DNA of 64,000 nucleotides from Escherichia coli (GTDB taxonomy: Bacteria; Pseudomonadota; Gammaproteobacteria; Enterobacterales; Enterobacteriaceae): NCBI RefSeq assembly GCF_050920415.1, contig NZ_CP169309.1. One strand, written 5' to 3'. The position numbers and the translations under genes are program-made. Under the pieces are notes generated by a model, which did not search any database, was not told the origin of the DNA, and saw nothing but the letters and a program-made list of their open reading frames with translations. Below are positions 2,573 through 57,424 of the stretch, in pieces (position 1 is the first letter of the stretch; every line of letters starts with the position of its first letter).

Positions 2573-5134
2573 TTACACCAGACTCTTCAAGCGATAAATC
2601 CATTCCAGCGCCTGACGCGGGGTAAGTGAATCCGGGTCAAGATTTTCCAGCGCTTCGACCGCTGGCGACGTTTCTTCCGGTACTGACAGCAAAGACATTT
2701 GCGTACCATCCACTTGCGTAGCGGCGGCGTTCGGCGAAATGCTTTCCAGTTCACGCAGTTTTTGCCGTGCGCGCTTAATCACCTCTTTTGGCACGCCCGC
2801 CAGAGCAGCAACCGCCAGGCCGTAGCTTTTGCTCGCCGCGCCATCCTGCACACTGTGCATAAAGGCGATGGTGTCGCCGTGCTCCAGTGCATCGAGATGC
2901 ACGTTGGCGACGCCTTCCATTTTCTCCGGCAGTTGAGTCAGTTCAAAGTAGTGGGTAGCAAACAACGTCAACGCTTTAATCTTATTCGCCAGATTTTCAG
3001 CGCACGCCCATGCCAGCGACAGACCATCGTAAGTGGACGTTCCGCGCCCAATCTCATCCATCAACACCAGGCTGTACTCCGTGGCGTTATGCAGAATATT
3101 GGCGGTTTCGGTCATCTCCACCATAAAGGTTGAACGCCCGGATGCCAGATCGTCAGCCGCGCCCACACGGGTAAAGATACGATCGATAGGTCCAATCTCG
3201 ACTTTTTGCGCCGGTACGTAGCTGCCGATATAGGCCATCAGCGCAATCAGTGCGGTCTGGCGCATATAGGTACTTTTACCGCCCATATTCGGACCGGTGA
3301 TGATCAACATGCGACGCTGCGGCGACAGGTTCAGCGGGTTAGCGATAAACGGCTCATTCAGTACCTGTTCAACCACCGGATGGCGACCTTCGGTAATGCG
3401 AATGCCCGGTTTATCAATGAAGGTCGGGCAGGTGTAGTTCAGGGTATAGGCTCGTTCCGCCAGGTTTACCAGTACGTCGAGTTCTGCCAGTGCGCTCGCG
3501 CTCTGTTGCAACGCTTCCAGATGCGGCAACAGCAGGTCGAACAACTCTTCATAAAGCTGTTTTTCCAGTGCCAGCGCTTTACCTTTCGAGGTGAGTACTT
3601 TGTCTTCATACTCTTTTAGCTCTGGAATAATGTAGCGTTCGGCGTTTTTCAGCGTCTGACGACGCATATAGTTGATGGGTGCCAGATGGCTTTGTCCACG
3701 GCTAATCTGAATGTAATAACCATGCACCGCGTTAAAGCCGACTTTCAGCGTGTCCAGGCCGGTACGTTCACGCTCGCGAACTTCCAGACGCTCCAAATAA
3801 TCTGTCGCGCCGTCAGCCAGCGCGCGCCACTCATCCAGCTCTTCGTTATAGCCTGATGCGATAACACCACCGTCGCGTACCAGCACCGGCGGTGTGTCGA
3901 TGATTGCTCGCTCCAGCAGATCGCGCAGCTCTGCAAACTCGCCCATTTTCTCACGCAGCGCCTGTACCGGTGCACTATCGACACTTTCTAACTGCGCGCG
4001 TAGTTCTGGCAGTTGCTGGAAAGCGTGACGCATACGGGCCAGATCGCGTGGGCGAGCAGTCCGTAAAGCCAGACGTGCCAGAATACGTTCCAGGTCGCCG
4101 ACCTGACGCAGTACCGGCTGCAGCTCAGCGGTGAAATCCTGCAATGCGCCAATAGTTTGCTGGCGCTCAAGCAACACGCGGGTATCGCGCACTGGCATAT
4201 GCAGCCAGCGCTTCAGCATACGACTCCCCATCGGCGTTACAGTGCAGTCGAGCACGGAAGCCAGCGTGTTTTCCGCACCGCCCGCCAGGTTCTGGGTAAT
4301 TTCCAGGTTACGGCGCGTCGCGGCATCCATAATGATACTGTCCTGCTCACGTTCCATAGTGATAGAACGAATGTGCGGCAGAGTCGTACGTTGAGTATCT
4401 TTCGCATACTGCAACAGACAACCGGCGGCACAAAGTCCGCGCGGCGCGTTCTCGACGCCAAAACCGACCAGATCGCGAGTGCCAAATTGTAGATTCAACT
4501 GCTGGCGCGCGGTGTCGATTTCAAACTCCCACAGCGGACGACGACGCAGGCCGCGACGACCTTCAATCAGCGACATTTCAGCAAAATCTTCTGCATACAG
4601 CAGTTCCGCCGGATTAGTGCGTTGCAGTTCTGCCGCCATCGTTTCGCGGTCAGCCGGTTCGCTCAGGCGAAAACGACCGGAACTGATATCCAGCGTCGCG
4701 TAGCCGAAACCTTTACTGTCCTGCCAGATAGCCGCCAGCAGGTTGTCCTGACGCTCCTGCAACAGCGCTTCATCGCTGATGGTGCCCGGCGTAACGATAC
4801 GCACAACTTTGCGCTCAACCGGACCTTTGCTGGTCGCCGGATCGCCAATTTGTTCGCAGATGGCAACGGACTCGCCCTGATTCACCAGTTTGGCGAGGTA
4901 GTTTTCCACCGCATGGTATGGAATCCCCGCCATCGGGATCGGCTCTCCCGCGGAAGCGCCGCGTTTGGTCAGTGAAATATCCAGCAGTTGTGACGCACGT
5001 TTTGCGTCGTCATAAAACAGTTCGTAAAAGTCACCCATCCGGTAGAATAGCAGGATCTCGGGATGCTGGGCTTTCAGCTTGAGATACTGCTGCATCATGG
5101 GCGTATGGGCATCGAAATTTTCTATTGCACTCAT
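2573..5134 (-). CDS. mutS: DNA mismatch repair protein MutS
   Basis: 853-aa ORF; Walker [10 protein letters not shown]; full-length MutS architecture. Confidence 0.97.
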
Positions 5135-5380
5135 GGGGTTATGTCCGGTTCCCTGATATTAAATGGGGTGTGATGGTTTTTATTTTCGTTGTAATCACAT
5201 AAGGCGCACATGATACCGGAGTTAATCATTTCAGGGGAAGAAGCGAACGGCGAGTTCTTGATGGTGATTCCGGGAAAGATGCTGTTTTGCAGCTTTTGCG
5301 TGATGCTTATGAAGCAAGTACGCAAAATTGTATCAGTTGGCGACCCCTTCTTCTTCAGAGCCATAGTCCCCTTTCAAATT

Positions 5381-5403
5381 AAGTTGTAATATAAATACAT
5401 CTT
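5381..5403 (+). promoter_or_regulatory. Candidate NsrR operator (11-1-11 inverted repeat AAGTTGTAATA-T-AAATACATCTT) upstream of ygbA
   Basis: Resembles NsrR consensus AAGATGCATTT-N-AAATGCATCTT; lies about 20 bp upstream of the ygbA start. Confidence 0.55.
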
Positions 5404-5812: not shown

Positions 5813-7891
5813 TTAAACCAATGCCGATTTATCAATCCCCAGTCGTTTCATCCGTGATAGCAGTGTGGTGCGTTTTAGTCCCAGACGTTGCGCCGCGCCT
5901 TTCGGCCCGGCAACCACGCCGTTAGTCTCTTTTAATACACGCACAATTAGCTGATATTCATCTTCGCCCTCCTGAGCGACGACCGTTGCAGTCGGCGGCG
6001 TTTTAGGTTCCGGTAAAGCAATATCAGGCAATGACAGCTGCAGCACGTTGCCACGTGTCAGCAATACCGCGCGCTCAATGACGTTTTCCAGCTCGCGTAC
6101 ATTACCTGGCCACTCCATATTGCTCAACGCGCGCAATGTTTCGGCAGGAATGCTGTCGATATTACGCCCCAGACGGCGGGCAATTTTAAAAGTAAAGGCT
6201 TTCGCCAGCAGCGGAATATCTTCCGGACGCTCGCGTAGTGGCGGCAGGTGGATCGGGAATACGTTCAGACGGTAATAGAGATCGCTACGGAACTCGCGGT
6301 CGGCAACCATTTTTTTCAGATCGCGGTTAGTCGCGGCAATTAAACGCACGTCCGTCTGTATAATTTTATTACTGCCGAGACGTTCAAACTCCTGTTCCTG
6401 TAATACACGCAGCAACTTCGGTTGTAACTCCAGCGGCATATCACCCACTTCATCGAGGAACAGGGAGCTTTTATCCGCCAGTTCAAAACGACCGATACGC
6501 TGGGCGCTGGCTCCGGTAAACGCACCACGCTCATGGCCAAACAGATCGCTTTCCAACAATCCGGCAGGCATCGCCGCGCAGTTCATTTTTACCATGCGGC
6601 GATTATTACGCCCACTGAGATTATGGATCGCGCGGGCAATCAGCTCTTTACCAGTGCCAGTTTCACCGAGGATCAGAACTGTACTGTCACTTTGTGCCAC
6701 CATTTCAACTTGTTTAAGCACGCTGTACATGGCTTCACTGCGACCAATAATCTCGCCAAATTCACTATCAACATTGTTGAGCTGCTCGGTCAGGGCGAGA
6801 TTTTCATCAACCAGTCGTTCTTTCAGACGATGAATTTCCTGATAGGCAAGGGCGTTATCGACAGCGATTGCCACACGTTCGGCAATCTGGCGCAGTAAAT
6901 TCAGATTGGTCGTGGTAAACACTTTCTCTTCGCATTGCGCCAGTTTCAGCACGCCCAGCATGGTGTCGCCAGACATCAGCGGTAACAGGCACAAGGTTTG
7001 AATCTGGTTGCCCCAGGTGTCGAACAACATGCGTTCGTAGGGGGCTAAATTATCTCGCTCGTGGAGATTAATCAGCAGCATCTCTTTGCTTTTAAACACG
7101 CGTTCGGTGAGGGTTCCTGCTTCATCGACTTCGCTCTGTTCGTGAGCGGGATGCTGTTTATCAAGATAGTGAGTGGAGTAGATGTTGAGTTTGTTTTTAC
7201 GGTGGCTGCGTAAGACGATGCTGATATCGTCAATGTCGAAATAGTAATGGATTTCTTTGGCGACTTCGCTGACCAGTTCGTCCATATCCAGGCGAGAAAG
7301 CACCGCGTTGGTGATGGCAACCAGGATGCGGAAGTTATCGCGTTCCCGGCATAACAACTCATAGTCGACATTATTGACGACGCGGCTCTGGATTTGTTCG
7401 GTGACGACAGAAATGATCTGCGTAAAAGTTTGCAGGCGATTGAACTCTTTTTCACTCCACGGGCGATCGTCATAACGAATAAATTCACAGCCACCAAAAA
7501 TATGCCCTTCCGCCGCCAGTGGCATCAGGCAATAGTGACCAAATTTGGGGTATAGCCCACCAGCGGCCAGCTGCGGCCAGGTTTCACAAAATTCTTCGTA
7601 ACTGCAATGCAGTGTATCAGGGCGCGACAAAATGCTGCGCACCGGACCGTGTGCCAGAACAGTTTCGTCTTCATAATTTATGGGGGTGTCTTTTTCACGC
7701 GACGCGTAATAAGACGCACGTTGAGTATGCGCTTGCCACAACACAATAGCTGCATTGTCGGCGAGCGCAGAACGCTTTACCAATTGCGAAAGAGCCTCAC
7801 ACAGCGAGGCCAGATCGGGCTGCTGCAATAGTGTCCGAGTGATGTCGAACAACCCTTGTTGTCCGAGATCACTCATCGGTGTATATGACAT
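5813..7891 (-). CDS. fhlA: Formate hydrogenlyase transcriptional activator, sigma54-dependent enhancer-binding protein
   Basis: ORF 5813..7927 trimmed to the MSYTPMSDLGQQ start (692 aa); AAA+ sigma54 activator motifs GETGTGKE and GAFTGA; C-terminal HTH. Confidence 0.93.
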   Translation of the reverse strand: MSYTPMSDLGQQGLFDITRTLLQQPDLASLCEALSQLVKRSALADNAAIVLWQAHTQRASYYASREKDTPINYEDETVLAHGPVRSILSRPDTLHCSYEEFCETWPQLAAGGLYPKFGHYCLMPLAAEGHIFGGCEFIRYDDRPWSEKEFNRLQTFTQIISVVTEQIQSRVVNNVDYELLCRERDNFRILVAITNAVLSRLDMDELVSEVAKEIHYYFDIDDISIVLRSHRKNKLNIYSTHYLDKQHPAHEQSEVDEAGTLTERVFKSKEMLLINLHERDNLAPYERMLFDTWGNQIQTLCLLPLMSGDTMLGVLKLAQCEEKVFTTTNLNLLRQIAERVAIAVDNALAYQEIHRLKERLVDENLALTEQLNNVDSEFGEIIGRSEAMYSVLKQVEMVAQSDSTVLILGETGTGKELIARAIHNLSGRNNRRMVKMNCAAMPAGLLESDLFGHERGAFTGASAQRIGRFELADKSSLFLDEVGDMPLELQPKLLRVLQEQEFERLGSNKIIQTDVRLIAATNRDLKKMVADREFRSDLYYRLNVFPIHLPPLRERPEDIPLLAKAFTFKIARRLGRNIDSIPAETLRALSNMEWPGNVRELENVIERAVLLTRGNVLQLSLPDIALPEPKTPPTATVVAQEGEDEYQLIVRVLKETNGVVAGPKGAAQRLGLKRTTLLSRMKRLGIDKSALV

Positions 7892-12991: not shown

Positions 12992-14814
12992 GCGCAATTT
13001 CCCTGATCAATAGCGGCGTGGCGTGGTTTGTTGCCGCCGCTGTTCTGGCATTTCTCTTTTCTTTTCAAAAGGCGTTAAGCGGCTGGATTGCCGGAATTGG
13101 CGGCGCGGTGGGTAGCCTGTATACGGCAGCCGCAGGCTTCACTGTGCTGACTGGCGCGGTTGGCGTGAGCGGCGCGTTGTCGCTGGTAAGCTACAATGTG
13201 CAAATCTCTCCGCTTAATGCGATTTGGCTGATAACCCTCGGCCTGTGCGGTCTGTTTGTCAGCCTCTACAACATTGACTGGCATCGCCATGCGCAGGTGA
13301 AGTGTAACGGCTTGCAGATCAATATGTTGATGGCTGCTGCCGTCTGTGCCGTCATTGCCAGCAATCTGGGCATGTTCGTAGTAATGGCAGAAATCATGGC
13401 CCTGTGTGCGGTGTTCCTCACCAGCAACAGCAAAGAGGGCAAACTGTGGTTTGTGCTGGGGCGTCTTGGCACTTTGCTGCTGGCGATTGCTTGCTGGCTG
13501 CTGTGGCAACGTTACGGCACGCTGGATCTGCGCCTGCTGGATATGCGCATGCAACAGCTGCCGCTTGGTTCCGATATCTGGCTGCTCGGTGTGATTGGTT
13601 TTGGCCTGCTGGCCGGGATTATCCCGCTGCACGGCTGGGTGCCGCAGGCACATGCTAACGCCTCTGCGCCAGCTGCGGCGCTGTTTTCCACGGTGGTGAT
13701 GAAAATTGGCCTGCTGGGTATTTTAACCCTGTCTCTGCTGGGCGGTAATGCGCCGCTGTGGTGGGGAATTGCACTTCTGGTACTCGGCATGATCACCGCG
13801 TTCGTCGGCGGTCTGTATGCGCTGATGGAGCACAACATTCAGCGTTTGCTGGCTTACCACACTCTGGAAAATATCGGCATCATCCTGCTGGGGCTGGGCG
13901 CTGGCGTAACGGGTATCGCGCTTGAACAACCGGCGCTGATTGCCCTTGGCCTGGTCGGTGGTCTGTACCATCTGCTTAACCATAGCCTGTTCAAGAGCGT
14001 ACTGTTCCTCGGGGCTGGGAGCGTCTGGTTCCGTACCGGTCATCGCGATATCGAAAAACTCGGCGGTATTGGCAAAAAAATGCCGGTTATCTCCATCGCC
14101 ATGTTGGTCGGTCTGATGGCAATGGCTGCGCTGCCACCGCTGAACGGTTTTGCCGGGGAATGGGTTATCTATCAATCCTTCTTCAAACTGAGCAATAGTG
14201 GCGCGTTTGTTGCTCGTCTTCTCGGGCCGCTGCTCGCCGTGGGGCTGGCAATTACCGGTGCGCTGGCAGTGATGTGTATGGCGAAAGTTTATGGCGTTAC
14301 TTTCCTTGGCGCGCCGCGTACCAAAGAAGCCGAAAACGCCACCTGTGCGCCGCTCCTGATGAGCGTAAGCGTAGTGGCACTGGCGATTTGCTGCGTGATT
14401 GGCGGTGTTGCTGCGCCGTGGCTGCTGCCGATGTTGTCTGCAGCCGTACCTCTGCCGCTGGAGCCTGCTAATACAACCGTTTCTCAACCAATGATCACGT
14501 TGCTGCTGATTGCCTGCCCACTTCTGCCATTCATCATTATGGCGATTTGCAAAGGCGACCGTCTGCCGTCGCGTTCCCGCGGCGCTGCCTGGGTATGTGG
14601 CTACGACCATGAAAAATCAATGGTGATTACCGCTCACGGTTTTGCCATGCCGGTGAAACAGGCATTTGCGCCAGTGCTGAAACTGCGCAAATGGCTGAAT
14701 CCGGTGTCGCTGGTACCAGGCTGGCAGTGCGAGGGGAGTGCGTTGCTGTTCCGCCGGATGGCGCTGGTTGAACTGGCGGTGCTGGTGGTGATTATTGTTT
14801 CACGAGGAGCCTGA
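12988..14814 (+). CDS. hycC: Hydrogenase-3 membrane subunit (NuoL-like antiporter module)
   Basis: 608-aa polytopic membrane ORF. Confidence 0.95.
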   Translation: MSAISLINSGVAWFVAAAVLAFLFSFQKALSGWIAGIGGAVGSLYTAAAGFTVLTGAVGVSGALSLVSYNVQISPLNAIWLITLGLCGLFVSLYNIDWHRHAQVKCNGLQINMLMAAAVCAVIASNLGMFVVMAEIMALCAVFLTSNSKEGKLWFVLGRLGTLLLAIACWLLWQRYGTLDLRLLDMRMQQLPLGSDIWLLGVIGFGLLAGIIPLHGWVPQAHANASAPAAALFSTVVMKIGLLGILTLSLLGGNAPLWWGIALLVLGMITAFVGGLYALMEHNIQRLLAYHTLENIGIILLGLGAGVTGIALEQPALIALGLVGGLYHLLNHSLFKSVLFLGAGSVWFRTGHRDIEKLGGIGKKMPVISIAMLVGLMAMAALPPLNGFAGEWVIYQSFFKLSNSGAFVARLLGPLLAVGLAITGALAVMCMAKVYGVTFLGAPRTKEAENATCAPLLMSVSVVALAICCVIGGVAAPWLLPMLSAAVPLPLEPANTTVSQPMITLLLIACPLLPFIIMAICKGDRLPSRSRGAAWVCGYDHEKSMVITAHGFAMPVKQAFAPVLKLRKWLNPVSLVPGWQCEGSALLFRRMALVELAVLVVIIVSRGA

Positions 14815-19656: not shown

Positions 19657-19823
19657 TTCGTAGACAAACATATTCACGTTTTTGAATTTGGACGTGCTAT
19701 TGTGACGGTTAGACGGGTGTTTACATATTGTGAACACTCGTGTGATCAACTACTATAGAAAAATAAAACCGAAGGAACGGGTAGTCCAGGCTTAGTCATT
19801 CAGGCGCTGATAAGGAAGTTAAA

Positions 19824-20135
19824 ATGCACATCATTTCTAAAGCGCCATTTGAAGAGTCTGCGCGTAAATATCCTAACGACGCTCTGGCTCTACACTCATT
19901 GTATCGGGTTATTAAGGAAACGGATTTTTCTACGCCAGAAGAAATGCGAACGGCGTTTCCCAACCTCGACAATTTTAAATATCGCAATAAATGGTACGTT
20001 CTGGATGTAGGCGGGAACAATCTTAGGGTTATTGCCTACATAAACTTTGTTAATAAGCGGTTCTTTGTGAAGCACATAACGAATCATGCCGAGTATGACA
20101 AACTGACACGTTACTACAGAGAGAACAAAGAATGA
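19824..20135 (+). CDS. HigB-family type II toxin (RelE/ParE-superfamily mRNA interferase), accessory gene
   Basis: 103-aa ORF; FPNLDNFKY...VGGNNLRVIAY...HITNHAEYD pattern resembles HigB as I recall it; AAGGAAG Shine-Dalgarno; toxin-first order; 4-bp ATGA overlap with the downstream antitoxin. Confidence 0.75.
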   Translation: MHIISKAPFEESARKYPNDALALHSLYRVIKETDFSTPEEMRTAFPNLDNFKYRNKWYVLDVGGNNLRVIAYINFVNKRFFVKHITNHAEYDKLTRYYRENKE

Positions 20136-20551
20136 CTGCTAATGCTGCACGCGCTGTTAAAGCAACAAGAGAACTGGTCAATGCAGTCCCCTTTCTGGGA
20201 GGCAGTGACTCAGAAGATGATTATCGTGAAGCACTGGAACTGGTCGAATATTTGATTGAAGAAGATGACACCAATCCACTTATCGACTTTCTGGCGAGCC
20301 GTATTGCAGAATATGAAAACAACCACGAAAAGTTTGCAGAGTTCGATAAAGCCGTTGCAGCAATGCCGATTGGCGTGGCGTTACTTCGCACGCTGATTGA
20401 TCAACATAATCTGACCTATGCGGATTTGAAGAACGAAATCGGCTCTAAATCCCTGGTCAGTCAGATTTTGTCTGGACAAAGATCCCTGACGATATCCCAC
20501 ATTAAGGCACTTTCAGCCCGATTTGGCGTTAAGCCGGAATGGTTTCTTTGA
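20132..20551 (+). CDS. HigA-family antitoxin with C-terminal XRE-type helix-turn-helix
   Basis: 139-aa ORF; C-terminal SKSLVSQILSGQRSLTISHIKALSARFGV HTH; start overlaps toxin stop. Confidence 0.75.
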   Translation: MTANAARAVKATRELVNAVPFLGGSDSEDDYREALELVEYLIEEDDTNPLIDFLASRIAEYENNHEKFAEFDKAVAAMPIGVALLRTLIDQHNLTYADLKNEIGSKSLVSQILSGQRSLTISHIKALSARFGVKPEWFL

Positions 20552-20578
20552 TTTTTGACAGATGCCAAACGCCAGATT

Positions 20579-20658
20579 GCCCGATGTGCTGCGCTTATCG
20601 GGCCTACATGTCGCACGAACTATGTAGGCCGGATAAGGCGTTCACGCCGCATCCGGCA
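20579..20658. repeat. BIME: two REP elements in opposite orientation
   Basis: GCCCGATGTGCTGCGCTTATCGGGCCTACA and TGTAGGCCGGATAAGGCGTTCACGCCGCATCCGGCA are typical REP palindromes. Confidence 0.8.
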
Positions 20659-20665
20659 CGTTTGC

Positions 20666-23556
<2,891 letters not shown>

Positions 23557-25655: not shown

Positions 25656-27908
25656 ATGGCAAAAAACACATCTTGCGGTGTCCAACTGCGTATTCGTGGC
25701 AAAGTGCAGGGCGTCGGTTTTCGTCCCTTTGTCTGGCAACTGGCACAGCAATTAAATCTTCACGGCGATGTCTGTAATGACGGCGATGGCGTGGAAGTCC
25801 GGTTGCTGGAAGATCCGGAAATGTTTCTTGTTCAATTGCATCAGCACTGCCCGCCGCTGGCGCGTATTGATAGCGTCGAATGTGAGCAGTTTATCTGGAT
25901 GCAGCCGCCCACTGAGTTCACCATCCGCCAGAGCGCGGGCGGCGTCATGAATACGCAAATTGTTCCCGATGCCGCAACTTGCCCTGCCTGTCTTGCCGAA
26001 ATGAATACTCCAGGCGAACGGCGTTATCGTTATCCGTTTATCAACTGTACCCACTGCGGCCCGCGTTTCACCATTATTCGCGCGATGCCTTACGACCGTC
26101 CATTTACCGTGATGGCGGCGTTTCCGCTTTGTCCGGCCTGCGATAAAGAATATCGCGACCCGCTCGATCGTCGCTTCCACGCCCAGCCGGTGGCCTGCCC
26201 GGAGTGTGGCCCGCATCTTGAATGGCTAAGTCATGGTGAACATGCAGAACAAGAGGCGGCATTACAGGCAGCTATCGCACAGTTAAAAATGGGCAACATT
26301 GTCGCCATCAAAGGGATTGGCGGATTTCATCTCGCCTGCGATGCGCGTAACAGTAACGCGGTGGCGACACTTCGGGCACGCAAACATCGCCCGGCGAAAC
26401 CGCTGGCGGTCATGTTGCCAGTGACAGAAGATTTACCAGACGCTGCCCGTCAGTTGCTCACCACGCCCGCCGCGCCGATTGTGCTGGTGGATAAAAAATA
26501 TGTTCCGGAACTTTGTGACGATATCGCCCCTGGCCTTAACGAAGTCGGGGTGATGTTGCCTGCGAATCCGCTCCAGCATTTGCTGTTACAGGAACTGCAA
26601 TGCCCGCTGGTGATGACCTCCGGCAACCTGAGCGGTAAACCACCGGCTATCAGCAACGAACAGGCGCTGGAGGATTTGCAGGACATTGCCGACGGATTCT
26701 TGATTCATAACCGCGACATCGTGCAGCGGATGGATGATTCAGTGGTGCGCGAAAGTGGCGAAATGTTGCGCCGCTCGCGGGGGTATGTACCGGATGCGCT
26801 GGCTTTGCCTCCGGGCTTTAAAAATATTCCTCCTGTGTTGTGTCTCGGTGCGGATCTGAAAAATACCTTCTGTCTGGTGCGTGGTGAACAGGCGGTGTTG
26901 AGTCAACATTTGGGCGATTTAAGTGACGATGGCATTCAGATGCAGTGGCGCGAAGCGTTGCGTCTGATGCAAAACATCTACGATTTTACTCCACAGTTTG
27001 TGGTGCATGATGCGCATCCGGGCTATGTCTCCAGCCAGTGGGCGCGTGAGATGAATCTGCCGACGCAAACGGTGCTGCATCACCATGCCCACGCGGCGGC
27101 GTGTCTGGCAGAACATCACTGGCCGCTGGATGGCGGTGATGTCATTGCTTTGACGCTCGACGGTATTGGTATGGGCGAGAACGGCGCTTTATGGGGCGGC
27201 GAGTGCTTGCGGGTGAACTATCGCGAATGCCAGCACCTGGGCGGTTTGCCTGCGGTGGCGCTTGTTGGTGGCGATTTGGCTGCAAAGCAGCCGTGGCGTA
27301 ACCTGCTGGCGCAGTGCCTGCGCTTTGTGCCGGAGTGGCAGAATTACTCTGAAACGGCAAGTGTGCAACAGCAAAACTGGAGCGTGCTGGCGCGGGCCAT
27401 TGAGCGTGGAATCAATGCTCCGCTGGCATCATCGTGTGGGCGGTTGTTCGATGCCGTATCGGCTGCGCTGGGCTGTGCGCCAGCCACGTTAAGTTATGAA
27501 GGTGAAGCGGCTTGTGCTCTGGAGGCGCTCGCAGCTTCGTGCCACGGAGTGACGCATCCGGTGACGATGCCGCTGGTGGACAATCAACTGGATCTCGCCA
27601 CTTTCTGGCAGCAGTGGCTGAACTGGCAGGCTCCGGTTAATCAACGCGCGTGGGCGTTTCATGATGCACTGGCGCAGGGTTTTGCCGCGTTGATGCGTGA
27701 GCAGGCCACGATGTGCGGTATCACTACGCTGGTATTTAGCGGTGGGGTTATTCATAACCGTTTGCTGCGTGCACGTCTGGCGCATTATCTTGCTGATTTT
27801 ACGTTGCTCTTCCCGCAGAGTTTACCTGCGGGGGATGGCGGGTTGTCTCTGGGGCAGGGGGTTATTGTTGCGGCCCGTTGGGTGGCGGGTGAAGTCCAGA
27901 ACGGATAA
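25656..27908 (+). CDS. hypF: Carbamoyltransferase HypF ([NiFe]-hydrogenase maturation)
   Basis: 750 aa from [10 protein letters not shown]; acylphosphatase domain, two CxxC zinc-finger pairs, YrdC and Kae1-like domains. Confidence 0.95.
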
Positions 27909-27930
27909 ACGTGTTGCATTTGGGCGCAGT

Positions 27931-27961
27931 GCCGGATGCGGCGTGAACGCCTTATCCGGCC
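27931..27961. repeat. REP element
   Basis: GCCGGATGCGGCGTGAACGCCTTATCCGGCC between convergent hypF and norW. Confidence 0.75.
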
Positions 27962-28001
27962 TTGTATTATCCCTCCAGGCATTTTGGGTACAGTAGCCCG
28001 C

Positions 28002-29135
28002 CTACATCGGCAAGGTTTTCAACATTCCAAACGCCTCTTTCATCCGATCCTCACTGACTACAAAGGCGCGAAGCTGGTCGGCATCGTCAACGCCGCGCGC
28101 CACCATTCCCTGGCTTTCGGTACAAATCTGCCAGCGCAAATCCTGACGCTGGGTTTCGCCTGCCAGATGCAGCGGTAATTCCGGCGTTTTGATTTTCACC
28201 AGCATCGCCGGTAGTTTCAGCGGCGTGTTATTGCCGAGAAGATTTTTTGCCAGCACCATCGCGCTAAGTTGAATCGGCTGGAGGAACGGCAATACCTGAC
28301 CGTTAATTTCTGCGCAATCGCCCAGCGCGTAAATATCGGCATTACTGGTTTGCAGATAGCTATCGACGCAAACGCCGCGATTAATCGTCAGCCCGGCGCG
28401 TCGTGCCAGGGCGGTTTCCGGGCGCAGTCCGGTGGCGGCAATTACCGCATCCACTTCGATGCTGCGCTGGCGGTCCAGCGTTGCCAGAATGCCATAATTC
28501 GTTTTTTCCAGCCCCTGCAACTGAGATTTCAACAGCAGATGAACGCCCATCTCCGTCAACCGATGCTGTAAGCGACTGCTTACTTCCGGTGGCATTAACG
28601 ACGCCAGAATACTGGCAGCGTTGTCGATTAGCGTGACCGCTTTGCCTGCCCGACAAAAATCCATCGCCAGCTCGCTACCAATCAAGCCACCGCCTACAAT
28701 CAACACCCGTCGGGCATCCCGCAGTTGTGTTTCACAGGCGCGATATTCTTGCTGACTATTTAACGTCAGCATTAACTCACGCCCAGGCACCGGCGGGACA
28801 AAGGCGCTGGCTCCGGTAGCCAGCACTAGCTTGTCGTATTGCCACTGATTATTCTGGCTTTTCACCACATGGGCTTCGGCATCGATATCCGTCACCCAGG
28901 TGTGCGGAAACAGGCGCAGATTAAACTGCTCGGCAAATTCACCCGCCGTCTGGCGGGTAAGGTCGTCGGCACGTTGCCCCTGACTGATCACATGGCTAAG
29001 ATCAGGTTTGTTGTACTCATCCATGCTGTCGGCGGCAATCAGGGTCAATGGAATACTGGCGTCCTGTTTGCGAATATTTTTCACCAGTTGGCGGGCGGCG
29101 AAGCCCGAACCAATGATCACAATGCCGTTGCTCAT
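28002..29135 (-). CDS. norW: NADH:flavorubredoxin reductase
   Basis: 377-aa ORF; FAD/NAD Rossmann motifs GSGFAA and GGGLIG. Confidence 0.95.
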
Positions 29136-34457: not shown

Positions 34458-34487
34458 GTAGGCCTGATAAGCGTAGCGCATCAGGCA
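34458..34487. repeat. REP element
   Basis: GTAGGCCTGATAAGCGTAGCGCATCAGGCA. Confidence 0.75.
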
Positions 34488-34500
34488 TTCTATTAGTCTC

Positions 34501-34525
34501 GCGGAGATCCTTAACGGATCTCCGC
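34501..34525 (-). other. Perfect 10-bp-stem hairpin immediately downstream of srlD, no U-tract (intra-operon stabiliser or attenuator-like)
   Basis: GCGGAGATCC-ttaac-GGATCTCCGC. Confidence 0.6.
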
Positions 34526-44716: not shown

Positions 44717-44809
44717 GGTGAGGTGGCCGAGAGGCTGAAGGCGCTCCCCTGCTAAGGGAGTATGCGGTCAAAAGCTGCATCCGGGGTTCGAATCCCCGCC
44801 TCACCGCCA
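44717..44809 (+). tRNA. serV: tRNA-Ser (anticodon GCU)
   Basis: 93-nt cloverleaf GGTGAGGTGGCCGAG...CGCCTCACCGCCA, long variable arm, anticodon loop CTGCTAA, encoded CCA. Confidence 0.95.
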
Positions 44810-44812
44810 TTT

Positions 44813-44889
44813 GCATCCGTAGCTCAGCTGGATAGAGTACTCGGCTACGAACCGAGCGGTCGGAGGTTCGAATCCTCCCGGATGCACCA
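44813..44889 (+). tRNA. argV: tRNA-Arg (anticodon ACG)
   Basis: 77 nt GCATCCGTAGCTCAGCTGGATAGAGTACTCGGCTACGAACCGAGCGGTCGGAGGTTCGAATCCTCCCGGATGCACCA. Confidence 0.95.
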
Positions 44890-45088
44890 TATTCTACGAA
44901 ATCTTCAGCGATGAAGGTGTCGAAGAGGTGGCGGTACTAACTGCAAGCACCAGGGAGGATAACGTTGCTTTAGCAACGGCCCGAAGGGCGAGCCGTAAGG
45001 CGAGTAATCCTCCCGGATGCACCATCTCTTACTTGATACGGCTTTAGTAGCGGTATCAAAAAATCTGCAGTAAAGTAAGTTTCCCGAT

Positions 45089-45165
45089 GCATCCGTAGCT
45101 CAGCTGGATAGAGTACTCGGCTACGAACCGAGCGGTCGGAGGTTCGAATCCTCCCGGATGCACCA
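45089..45165 (+). tRNA. argY: tRNA-Arg (anticodon ACG)
   Basis: Identical 77-nt sequence to the first copy. Confidence 0.95.
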
Positions 45166-45362
45166 TATTCTACGAAATCTTCAGCGATGAAGGTGTCGAA
45201 GAGGTGGCGGTACTAACCGCAAGCACCAGGGAGGATAACGTTGCTTTAGCAACGGCCCGAAGGGCGAGCCGTAAGGCGAGTAATCCTCCCGGATGCACCA
45301 TCTCTTACTTGATACGGCTTTAGTAGCGATATCGATATCAGCAGTAAAATAAATTTCCCGAT

Positions 45363-45439
45363 GCATCCGTAGCTCAGCTGGATAGAGTACTCGGCTACGA
45401 ACCGAGCGGTCGGAGGTTCGAATCCTCCCGGATGCACCA
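45363..45439 (+). tRNA. argZ: tRNA-Arg (anticodon ACG)
   Basis: Identical 77-nt sequence. Confidence 0.95.
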
Positions 45440-45637
45440 TATTCTCCGAAATCTTCAGCAATGAAGATATCGAAGAGGTAGCGGAATTAACCGCAGGCAC
45501 CAGGAGGGATAACGTTGCGCCAGCAACGGCCCGAAGGGCGAGCCGCAAGGCGAGTAATCCTCCCGGATGCACCATCTCTTACTTGATATGGCTTTAGTAG
45601 CGGTATCAATATCAGCAGTAAAGTAAGTTCTCCCGAT

Positions 45638-45714
45638 GCATCCGTAGCTCAGCTGGATAGAGTACTCGGCTACGAACCGAGCGGTCGGAGGTTCGAATCC
45701 TCCCGGATGCACCA
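45638..45714 (+). tRNA. argQ: tRNA-Arg (anticodon ACG)
   Basis: Identical 77-nt sequence. Confidence 0.95.
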
Positions 45715-48623: not shown

Positions 48624-48696
48624 AAAAAGGCCACTCGTGAGTGGCCAAAATTTCATCTCTGAATTCAGGGATGATGATAACAAATGCGCGTCTTTC
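48624..48696 (-). ncRNA. micA: MicA (SraD) small RNA, sigmaE-dependent, Hfq-binding
   Basis: Minus-strand sequence GAAAGACGCGCATTTGTTATCATCATCCCTGAATTCAGAGATGAAATTTTGGCCACTCACGAGTGGCCTTTTT matches MicA as I recall it, including the terminal hairpin plus U-tract. Confidence 0.9.
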
Positions 48697-57343: not shown

Positions 57344-57424
57344 GTAGACATGATAAGACGCGCCAGCGTCGCATCAGGCATTGTGTACAGAGCGGCGGAT
57401 GAGGCAAAAACGCCTTATCCGCCC
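57344..57424. repeat. REP-type palindromic elements (pair) between ygaY and proX
   Basis: GTAGACATGATAAGACGCGCCAGCGTCGCATCAGGCA and GCGGATGAGGCAAAAACGCCTTATCCGCCC. Confidence 0.7.

Follow-up and report, generated by a model that had tools for sequence, protein, structure and literature searches.

E. coli REPs and BIMEs have been listed for decades, and how polymorphic they are is well documented; the elements described here are ordinary, already known ones. The REPs of E. coli are grouped into the classes Y, Z1 and Z2 (Gilson, Bachellier, Hofnung; PMC2817692), and the locus studied here is like them in its consensus sequences, imperfect palindromes of 25-40 nt, extragenic location at gene 3' ends, alternating doublets, many copies and polymorphism between strains. 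BIME-1 is composed of Y and Z1 around an L motif with an IHF site, and BIME-2 of alternating Y and Z2 units that bind gyrase strongly. REPINs, which are defined mainly in Pseudomonas, consist of two inverted REPs and a spacer and can form one long hairpin (Bertels & Rainey 2011, PMC3116915). A transcribed REP hairpin makes the mRNA upstream of it more stable and dampens read-through; gyrase and Pol I bind to BIMEs, and the RAYT transposase mobilises REPs (PMC2817692; PMC3116915). For the insertion element IS621, the natural target is ATCAGGCCTAC and the target loop of the wild-type bridge RNA encodes exactly ATCGGGCCTAC (Durrant et al. 2024, PMC11208160).

The window, i.e., the whole 64-kb stretch of DNA that was analysed, is part of an E. 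coli chromosome (hyc-asc-hyp-nor-srl...proX) and is 100% identical to strain MFDS1022581 (NZ_CP169399). Relative to K-12 it runs in reverse orientation, at about 2.80-2.86 Mb, with the gene order hycE-I, ascBF, ascG, hydN, hypF, norWV, norR and the srl operon, followed further on by a tRNA cluster, micA and proX. A cluster of five tRNA genes at 44717-45711 on the plus strand (serV-argVYZQ in K-12) and the MicA sRNA at 48625-48696 on the minus strand are both expected for the region. Alleles and loci were counted in 5426 complete E. coli genomes. For the outgroup view, one genome per species was scanned for HycI, giving 80 loci.

REP units and their arrangement

REP units were sought with a head/tail motif scan (GCCKGATG ... 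TTATCMGGC, at most 2 mismatches), with consensus searches allowing at most 3 mismatches against a background of dinucleotide shuffles, and by BLAST, for which the three E. coli REP consensus sequences listed in PMC11208160 served as queries. The three approaches concur on six REP units at four sites in the 64 kb, with 0.00 matches expected by chance for each consensus. The REP palindromes named in the original prediction are genuine: they form two inverted doublets, i.e., BIMEs, at 20579-20658 (Z1-like on the plus strand, Y on the minus strand) and 57344-57424 (Z2 on the minus strand, Y-like on the plus strand) and two single REPs in the window strain, at 27931-27961 and 34458-34487. That list of four sites also proved complete, with no further significant REP in the window by motif scan, consensus searches or BLAST. 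Two weak motif-scan matches, at 13604 and 59974, were rejected, being recovered by neither consensus BLAST nor mismatch searches. The K-12 MG1655 record holds no REP repeat_region features and the units carry no official names here, so they are given by position:

20563-20578, plus strand: 16-nt leader TGCCAAACGCCAGATT, which precedes REP1 in every allele
20579-20603 (20579-20607 with the CTAC tail), plus strand: REP1 of the hycI/higA-ascB BIME, a Z1-like variant (GCCCGATG...), unit GCCCGATGTGCTGCGCTTATCGGGC
20604-20627, no strand: BIME spacer with the palindromic REP tails; its 20 nt at 20606-20625 read ACATGTCGCACGAACTATGT
20628-20657 (20624-20658 with tail), minus strand: REP2 of the hycI/higA-ascB BIME, Y, 0 mismatches
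27931-27960, plus strand: single REP at hypF/norW, Y, 0 mismatches
34462-34486 (34458-34487 with tail), minus strand: single REP at srlD-gutM, consensus Z1, 0 mismatches
57348-57379, minus strand: unit 1 of the proX REP doublet, Z2, 2 mismatches
57394-57423, plus strand: unit 2 of the proX REP doublet, degenerate, Y-like

Five of the six units have 0-3 mismatches to the consensus cores and the sixth (57394-57423) is degenerate. The GTAG/CTAC tetranucleotide is present at 20604-20607, 20624-20627, 34458-34461 and 57344-57347; it is missing from the degenerate unit and gone at 27961, the start of an IS621 scar described below. All six units are extragenic, between annotated or predicted coding sequences, in keeping with the earlier claim that REP/BIME elements mark intergenic junctions. 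Two junctions are convergent (higA/ascB and hypF/norW), one lies within the srl operon (srlD-gutM) and one is 3' of proX, upstream of the MFS gene ygaY. REP2 begins 7 nt past the ascB stop codon (20666-20668, minus strand), the hypF/norW Y REP 23 nt past the hypF stop codon and the proX BIME 10 nt past the proX stop codon. K-12 has orthologous REPs at all four junctions. Queries containing a Y REP (3.5 kb and 551 bp) matched a median of at least 32 and at least 28 places per genome, respectively, with at least 40 places in more than 1400 records.

We assign the four sites, with a probability of about 0.9, to standard E. coli Y/Z1/Z2 REPs, arranged as two inverted doublets of BIME/REPIN type and two singles in short 3'-end spacers. 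Within this family there are differences from the described types. The hycI-ascB doublet is not a textbook BIME-1/RIP, because it pairs Y with a GCCCGATG...CGGGC variant of Z1 across a 20-nt spacer and has no IHF site; the IHF consensus (WATCAANNNNTTR) is absent from all four REP sites. The proX BIME at 57344-57424 resembles BIME-2 in having a Z2 and a Y-like unit, but it comprises one doublet only and its Y-like unit lacks the tail tetranucleotide. In both doublets two inverted REPs flank a spacer and can fold into one long hairpin as in REPINs, whereas the arms here come from different REP classes.

Compared with shuffles, RNA folding gave z = -3.4 on both strands of the hycI-ascB BIME, z = -5.1 at srlD-gutM and z = -4.6 in the proX 3' region, and the single hypF-norW REP in its context folded no better than shuffles (z about -1.4). 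Across the spacer of the hycI-ascB BIME a 16-nt arm pair is 94% complementary, and a simple terminator scan found no terminator-like site at this BIME. At 34501-34525, directly 3' of srlD and beside the Z1 REP, a separate hairpin has a stem of 10 bp without mismatches and a loop of 5 nt (GCGGAGATCC TTAAC GGATCTCCGC); K-12 shares it except for one substitution in the left arm and another in the loop.

By analogy with published REP work, the transcribed hairpins would keep exonucleases from the 3' ends of upstream mRNAs and lessen read-through where genes converge. The copies would be spread and maintained by a RAYT (TnpA-REP) transposase encoded elsewhere in the genome; the 64-kb window itself holds no RAYT (TnpA-REP, yafM) gene. 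REPs within 15 nt of a stop codon have been reported to interfere with translation termination, and the REPs of ascB (7 nt) and proX (10 nt) fall within this distance, at which they may also dampen termination.

The proX-ygaY doublet (57347-57424) might be more than a 3' UTR element, i.e., a putative nucleoid-associated ncRNA of the naRNA4 type, a type defined by expression as an RNA associated with HU. The Rfam naRNA4 model (RF02564) matches it over its full length with 63.5 bits (gathering score 59.5) on the minus strand, which is the strand transcribed from proX. We regard such an RNA as unlikely. The score is only 4 bits above threshold; the model amounts to a BIME unit of Y plus Z2, so that any BIME-2 unit scores; and the naRNA4 that has been described originates from another REP cluster, one with several units. 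The match is read as recognition of the Y-plus-Z2 BIME unit rather than as evidence for a specific RNA gene.

The hycI-ascB BIME is older than the higBA cassette

The BIME at 20579-20658 adjoins, as predicted, a toxin-antitoxin (TA) pair, which we identify as higBA, an accessory type II pair carried on a cassette of about 0.9 kb:

19824-20135, plus strand: higB, Pfam HigB_toxin, 3.8e-23
20132-20551, plus strand: higA, Pfam HTH_3, 1.5e-9

DNA matching the pair (query 19824-20551) occurs in 2508 of the 5426 complete E. coli genomes, at one chromosomal locus. In 1091 of these 2508 genomes higB is intact; the remainder carry higA with a 3' fragment of higB, i.e., an orphan antitoxin. A plasmid search found no donor: the closest plasmid homologues are 70-73% identical, over the coding region only. 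The stretch from hycI to the next conserved gene exists in many forms:

K-12: hycI - BIME - ascB
window: hycI - higBA - BIME - ascB
95JB1: hycI - hyp252 - higBA - BIME - ascB
Nissle, ST131: hycI - hyp252 or fragment - higBA or higA alone - REP1 only; asc absent
KKa019: BIME without the Y REP
A19, EC01: IS621 within the BIME

A hycI gene facing ascB is the common arrangement across Enterobacteriaceae. In 31 of 77 Enterobacteriaceae species representatives, REP-like units are found no further than 400 bp 3' of hycI, making this junction a long-standing REP site, and higBA is downstream of hycI in none of the 80 species-representative loci. In E. whittamii, E. albertii, Escherichia sp. MOD1-EC7003 and E. 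coli E69, the gene after hycI is hyp252. At the empty site (E69, E. albertii), the hyp252 stop TGA is directly followed by TGGCAAACGCTAAATT and then by REP1-spacer-REP2. Because these empty sites already have the complete doublet, and because none of the 80 representatives has higBA, the BIME is older than the cassette.

In Nissle and 95JB1, the hyp252 stop is separated from the 16-nt leader by a block of about 0.9 kb (CTTTTTGCAG ... higB higA ... TTTGACTGA) that has ACTGA at either side. The right boundary of the cassette corresponds to the junction of window positions 20562 and 20563, 16 bp left of REP1, and the cassette is bounded by the 5-bp direct repeat ACTGA; a repeat of this length is short enough for coincidence. 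The point of insertion was 16 bp left of REP1, where hyp252 has its stop codon. The empty-site junction (in K-12, CTGA joined to TGCCAAAT) is also that of K-12 and Escherichia sp. E1V33, which have lost an internal part of hyp252 between GGGATGT(G/T)C repeats, from which it follows that K-12 never had the cassette here or lost it precisely. Loss of higBA by deletion in K-12 was considered and rejected, since the empty-site junction is present and the only deletion is internal to hyp252.

The left junction of the window is a rarer variant, in which hyp252 is missing and a different 162-bp region (19659-19820) lies upstream of higB; what this region shares with the common form is confined to an operator-like palindrome of 19 bp, GTGTTTACATATTGTGAAC (19717-19735). 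Among the loci compared, this window-type upstream region (19657-19823) was seen only in the window strain and KKa019. Escherichia sp. MOD1-EC7003 carries, at the exact higBA insertion point, a 30-bp insert, CTTTTCACGACGAAGAATCAGTCAGACTGA (about 6268-6297 of its locus), which could be what is left of a deleted cassette or else a part of the hyp252 3' end that was duplicated.

The original prediction had further suggested that the BIME may be relevant to how the TA insertion arose. A BIME could have mediated the acquisition of higBA, for instance by REP-REP recombination or by RAYT-type mobilisation of a REP-flanked segment, and the position of the cassette, 16 bp from REP1 in every allele including the B2 strains that retain REP1 only, speaks for such a role, as does a region evidently prone to recombination (inversion, IS621 insertion, loss of the Y REP and endpoints of asc deletions by REP1). 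The comparison of strains argues the other way. The same BIME, in the same place and with the same structure, is present in strains and Escherichia species that lack the TA pair: K-12, GF66.1, E69, Escherichia sp. E1V33 and E. albertii are all TA-less and show no cassette-linked rearrangement of the BIME, which is intact and unmoved in TA-less alleles and outgroup species. The breakpoint falls outside the REP, the left junction is the hyp252 stop codon with neither a REP nor a REP fragment, and the flanks have only ACTGA in common. Spacer orientation and TA state also assort independently: all four combinations exist, with TA and the window orientation in the window, TA and the K-12 orientation in 95JB1, no TA and the K-12 orientation in K-12, and no TA and the window orientation in GF66.1, so the spacer flip is unrelated to the cassette. 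The original prediction had itself given unchanged junctions in strains without the TA pair as grounds for rejection, and this is what the comparison found. Mediation by the BIME is therefore very improbable. The palindromes and their place beside HigB/HigA stand, and the proposed role in the insertion does not, given a cassette boundary 16 bp outside REP1 and no REP at the left junction. The result is a clear negative: the BIME has no visible part in the higBA insertion and neither brought nor shaped the pair, and the best reading of the cassette is that it was inserted at the hyp252 stop.

The rearrangements of the BIME itself (spacer inversion, IS621 insertion and Y REP loss) are independent of TA state. 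In KKa019 the Y REP is cleanly missing and the spacer is followed by the ascB 3' flank (about 2545-2600 of its locus), either by loss of the REP or as a never-filled site. B2 strains and E. whittamii lack the asc operon, and their sequence changes directly after REP1 (about 5340-5400, 4305-4365 and 6270-6320 of their loci), which places the endpoint of the deletion or replacement against the REP.

Spacer orientation in the hycI-ascB BIME

Minute hairpin-loop inversions and quasipalindrome template-switch mutations are known from chloroplast non-coding DNA and from E. coli mutation studies; we found no earlier description of one for the hycI-ascB BIME. The spacer flip reported here, together with an exact IS621 target and an IS621 scar, makes a small addition to what is known of these elements, a modest extra beside the negative result above. 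The window spacer at 20606-20625 is the reverse complement of the K-12, 95JB1 and E69 spacers: in inverted orientation 18 (K-12), 17 (95JB1) and 19 (E69) of 20 positions match, against 10, 9 and 9 in direct orientation. As in the known minute inversions, a short segment between short inverted repeats is flipped, here with arms that are more complementary (T to A in the REP1 tail).

We call the window orientation A and the K-12 orientation B. Orientation was counted with spacer-centred queries of 55-56 nt; 110-nt junction queries were unsuitable, as megablast spans the flipped spacer at about 90% identity. An uninterrupted A spacer was found in 448 genomes and a B spacer in 2847. Orientation A is derived, because the outgroups have B. 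The A spacer is identical, including two extra substitutions, in the window, GF66.1, A19 and EC01, which suggests a single origin, probably followed by recombination into different backgrounds.

Once the BIME had formed, the spacer that its palindromic REP tails enclose was inverted. Point substitutions that built up over time, or exchange for an unrelated sequence, would explain the difference between A and B without any inversion, and indeed 1-3 mismatches remain even in inverted orientation and the match is partly trivial, the arms being palindromic. Such an origin is nonetheless scarcely credible given the excess of inverted over direct matches (18-19 against 9-10 of 20 positions). The central TCGCACGAAC, which is not palindromic, complements GTTCGTGCGA exactly, and the A spacer occurs at one place per genome, which means that it was not copied from another BIME. 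As for how the inversion arose, its breakpoints lie inside the 16-nt palindromic arms and the mechanism is for that reason not readable from the sequence; template switching, short-inverted-repeat recombination and a recombinase are the candidates.

IS621 at the REP tails

Insertion of IS621, a member of the IS110 family, into REPs was reportedly described by Choi and colleagues in 2003. In the A form, the REP1 tail (20597-20607) is ATCGGGCCTAC, i.e., exactly the target encoded by the bridge RNA, and the K-12 form is ATCGGGCCTTC. The window holds three ATCNGGCCTAC sites, against 0.07 expected by chance, all of them unoccupied target 11-mers:

20597-20607: unoccupied IS621 target in the REP1 tail
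20624-20634, minus strand: unoccupied IS621 target
34458-34468, minus strand: unoccupied IS621 target, identical to the natural target ATCAGGCCTAC

Full IS621 copies sit at the orthologous CT cores in four strains, A19, EC01, A39 and RX24. In A19 and EC01, a 1279-bp IS621 is found exactly at the CT core of the REP1 tail and is followed by the A spacer. These insertions are like known IS621 in their position exactly at the CT core of ATC[A/G/C]GGCCT/AC (slash, insertion point) in REP tails, in the length of the element (1279 bp) and in a transposase annotated as IS621 family. The window differs in having no intact copy; one of its REPs bears a scar of 16 nt from the left end, and at two others the target is unoccupied. 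REP tails are insertion sites for IS621 in other strains and were so in the past of the window strain, and the hycI-ascB BIME is a natural landing site for the element.

With a query joining the IS621 right end to the A spacer, IS621 was found at the BIME core in 198 genomes, always beside an A spacer. A left-junction query is not locus-specific, as it also matches IS621 at other Z1-type REPs. The B-spacer query matched at full length in 2847 of 2848 genomes, and no IS621 was detected at the core of B alleles; the sole partial match is unlike the product of an insertion at this core, which matches the A-spacer query over 14-56. Occupancy is thus about 31% of A alleles (198/646) against 0 of about 2848 B alleles, in genomes that are related and with clonal spread not corrected for. 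These numbers raise the tentative idea, to which we give slightly less than even odds, that the 20-bp inversion acts as a natural IS621 switch, in which the REP1 tail changes from ATCGGGCCTTC to ATCGGGCCTAC and the locus becomes an insertion hot spot. If so, very small differences in REP spacers would determine the landing places of bridge-RNA elements in natural populations. The locus offers a population-level illustration of IS621 specificity, in that one base by the CT core, set by the flip, separates an often occupied allele from one without IS621 among these genomes.

The order of events could also be the reverse, with the A spacer made by IS621, either by its recombinase acting on the inverted sites ATCGGGCCT (plus) and ATCCGGCCT (minus) or as the leftover of an insertion and excision. 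The flipped 20 nt are exactly the segment between two inverted CT cores, and IS621 is found only beside A (198 genomes), with a single partial match of a different kind among the 2848 B genomes. However, known IS621 recombination pairs a donor with a target via the bridge RNA and not two targets (PMC11208160), and 448 genomes have an A spacer without IS621. Moreover, any symmetric breakpoint in the 16-nt palindromic arms yields the same product, so template switching or short-inverted-repeat recombination would explain the flip equally well. We consider an IS621-made spacer improbable.

At the hypF-norW junction, K-12 has a Y REP and a Z2-like REP. In the window the Y REP is followed by TGTATTATCCCTCCAG (27961-27976, plus strand), after which the K-12 sequence resumes past the second REP. 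This segment is the first 16 nt of the IS621 left end after the CT core and is joined to the Y REP at the CT core. Because a full IS621 sits at precisely this position in A39 and RX24, the window allele is a deletion scar, in which most of IS621 and the neighbouring REP were lost. The scar allele occurs in 1 of the 5426 genomes, the window's own strain; this IS621 deletion, by which a REP was lost, is thus unique to it. The surrounding hypF/norW flanks (27700-28250) reach at least 99% identity in only 19 genomes, against about 93% in more than 5400 E. coli genomes, a pattern that points to a divergent or recombinant segment in the window strain.
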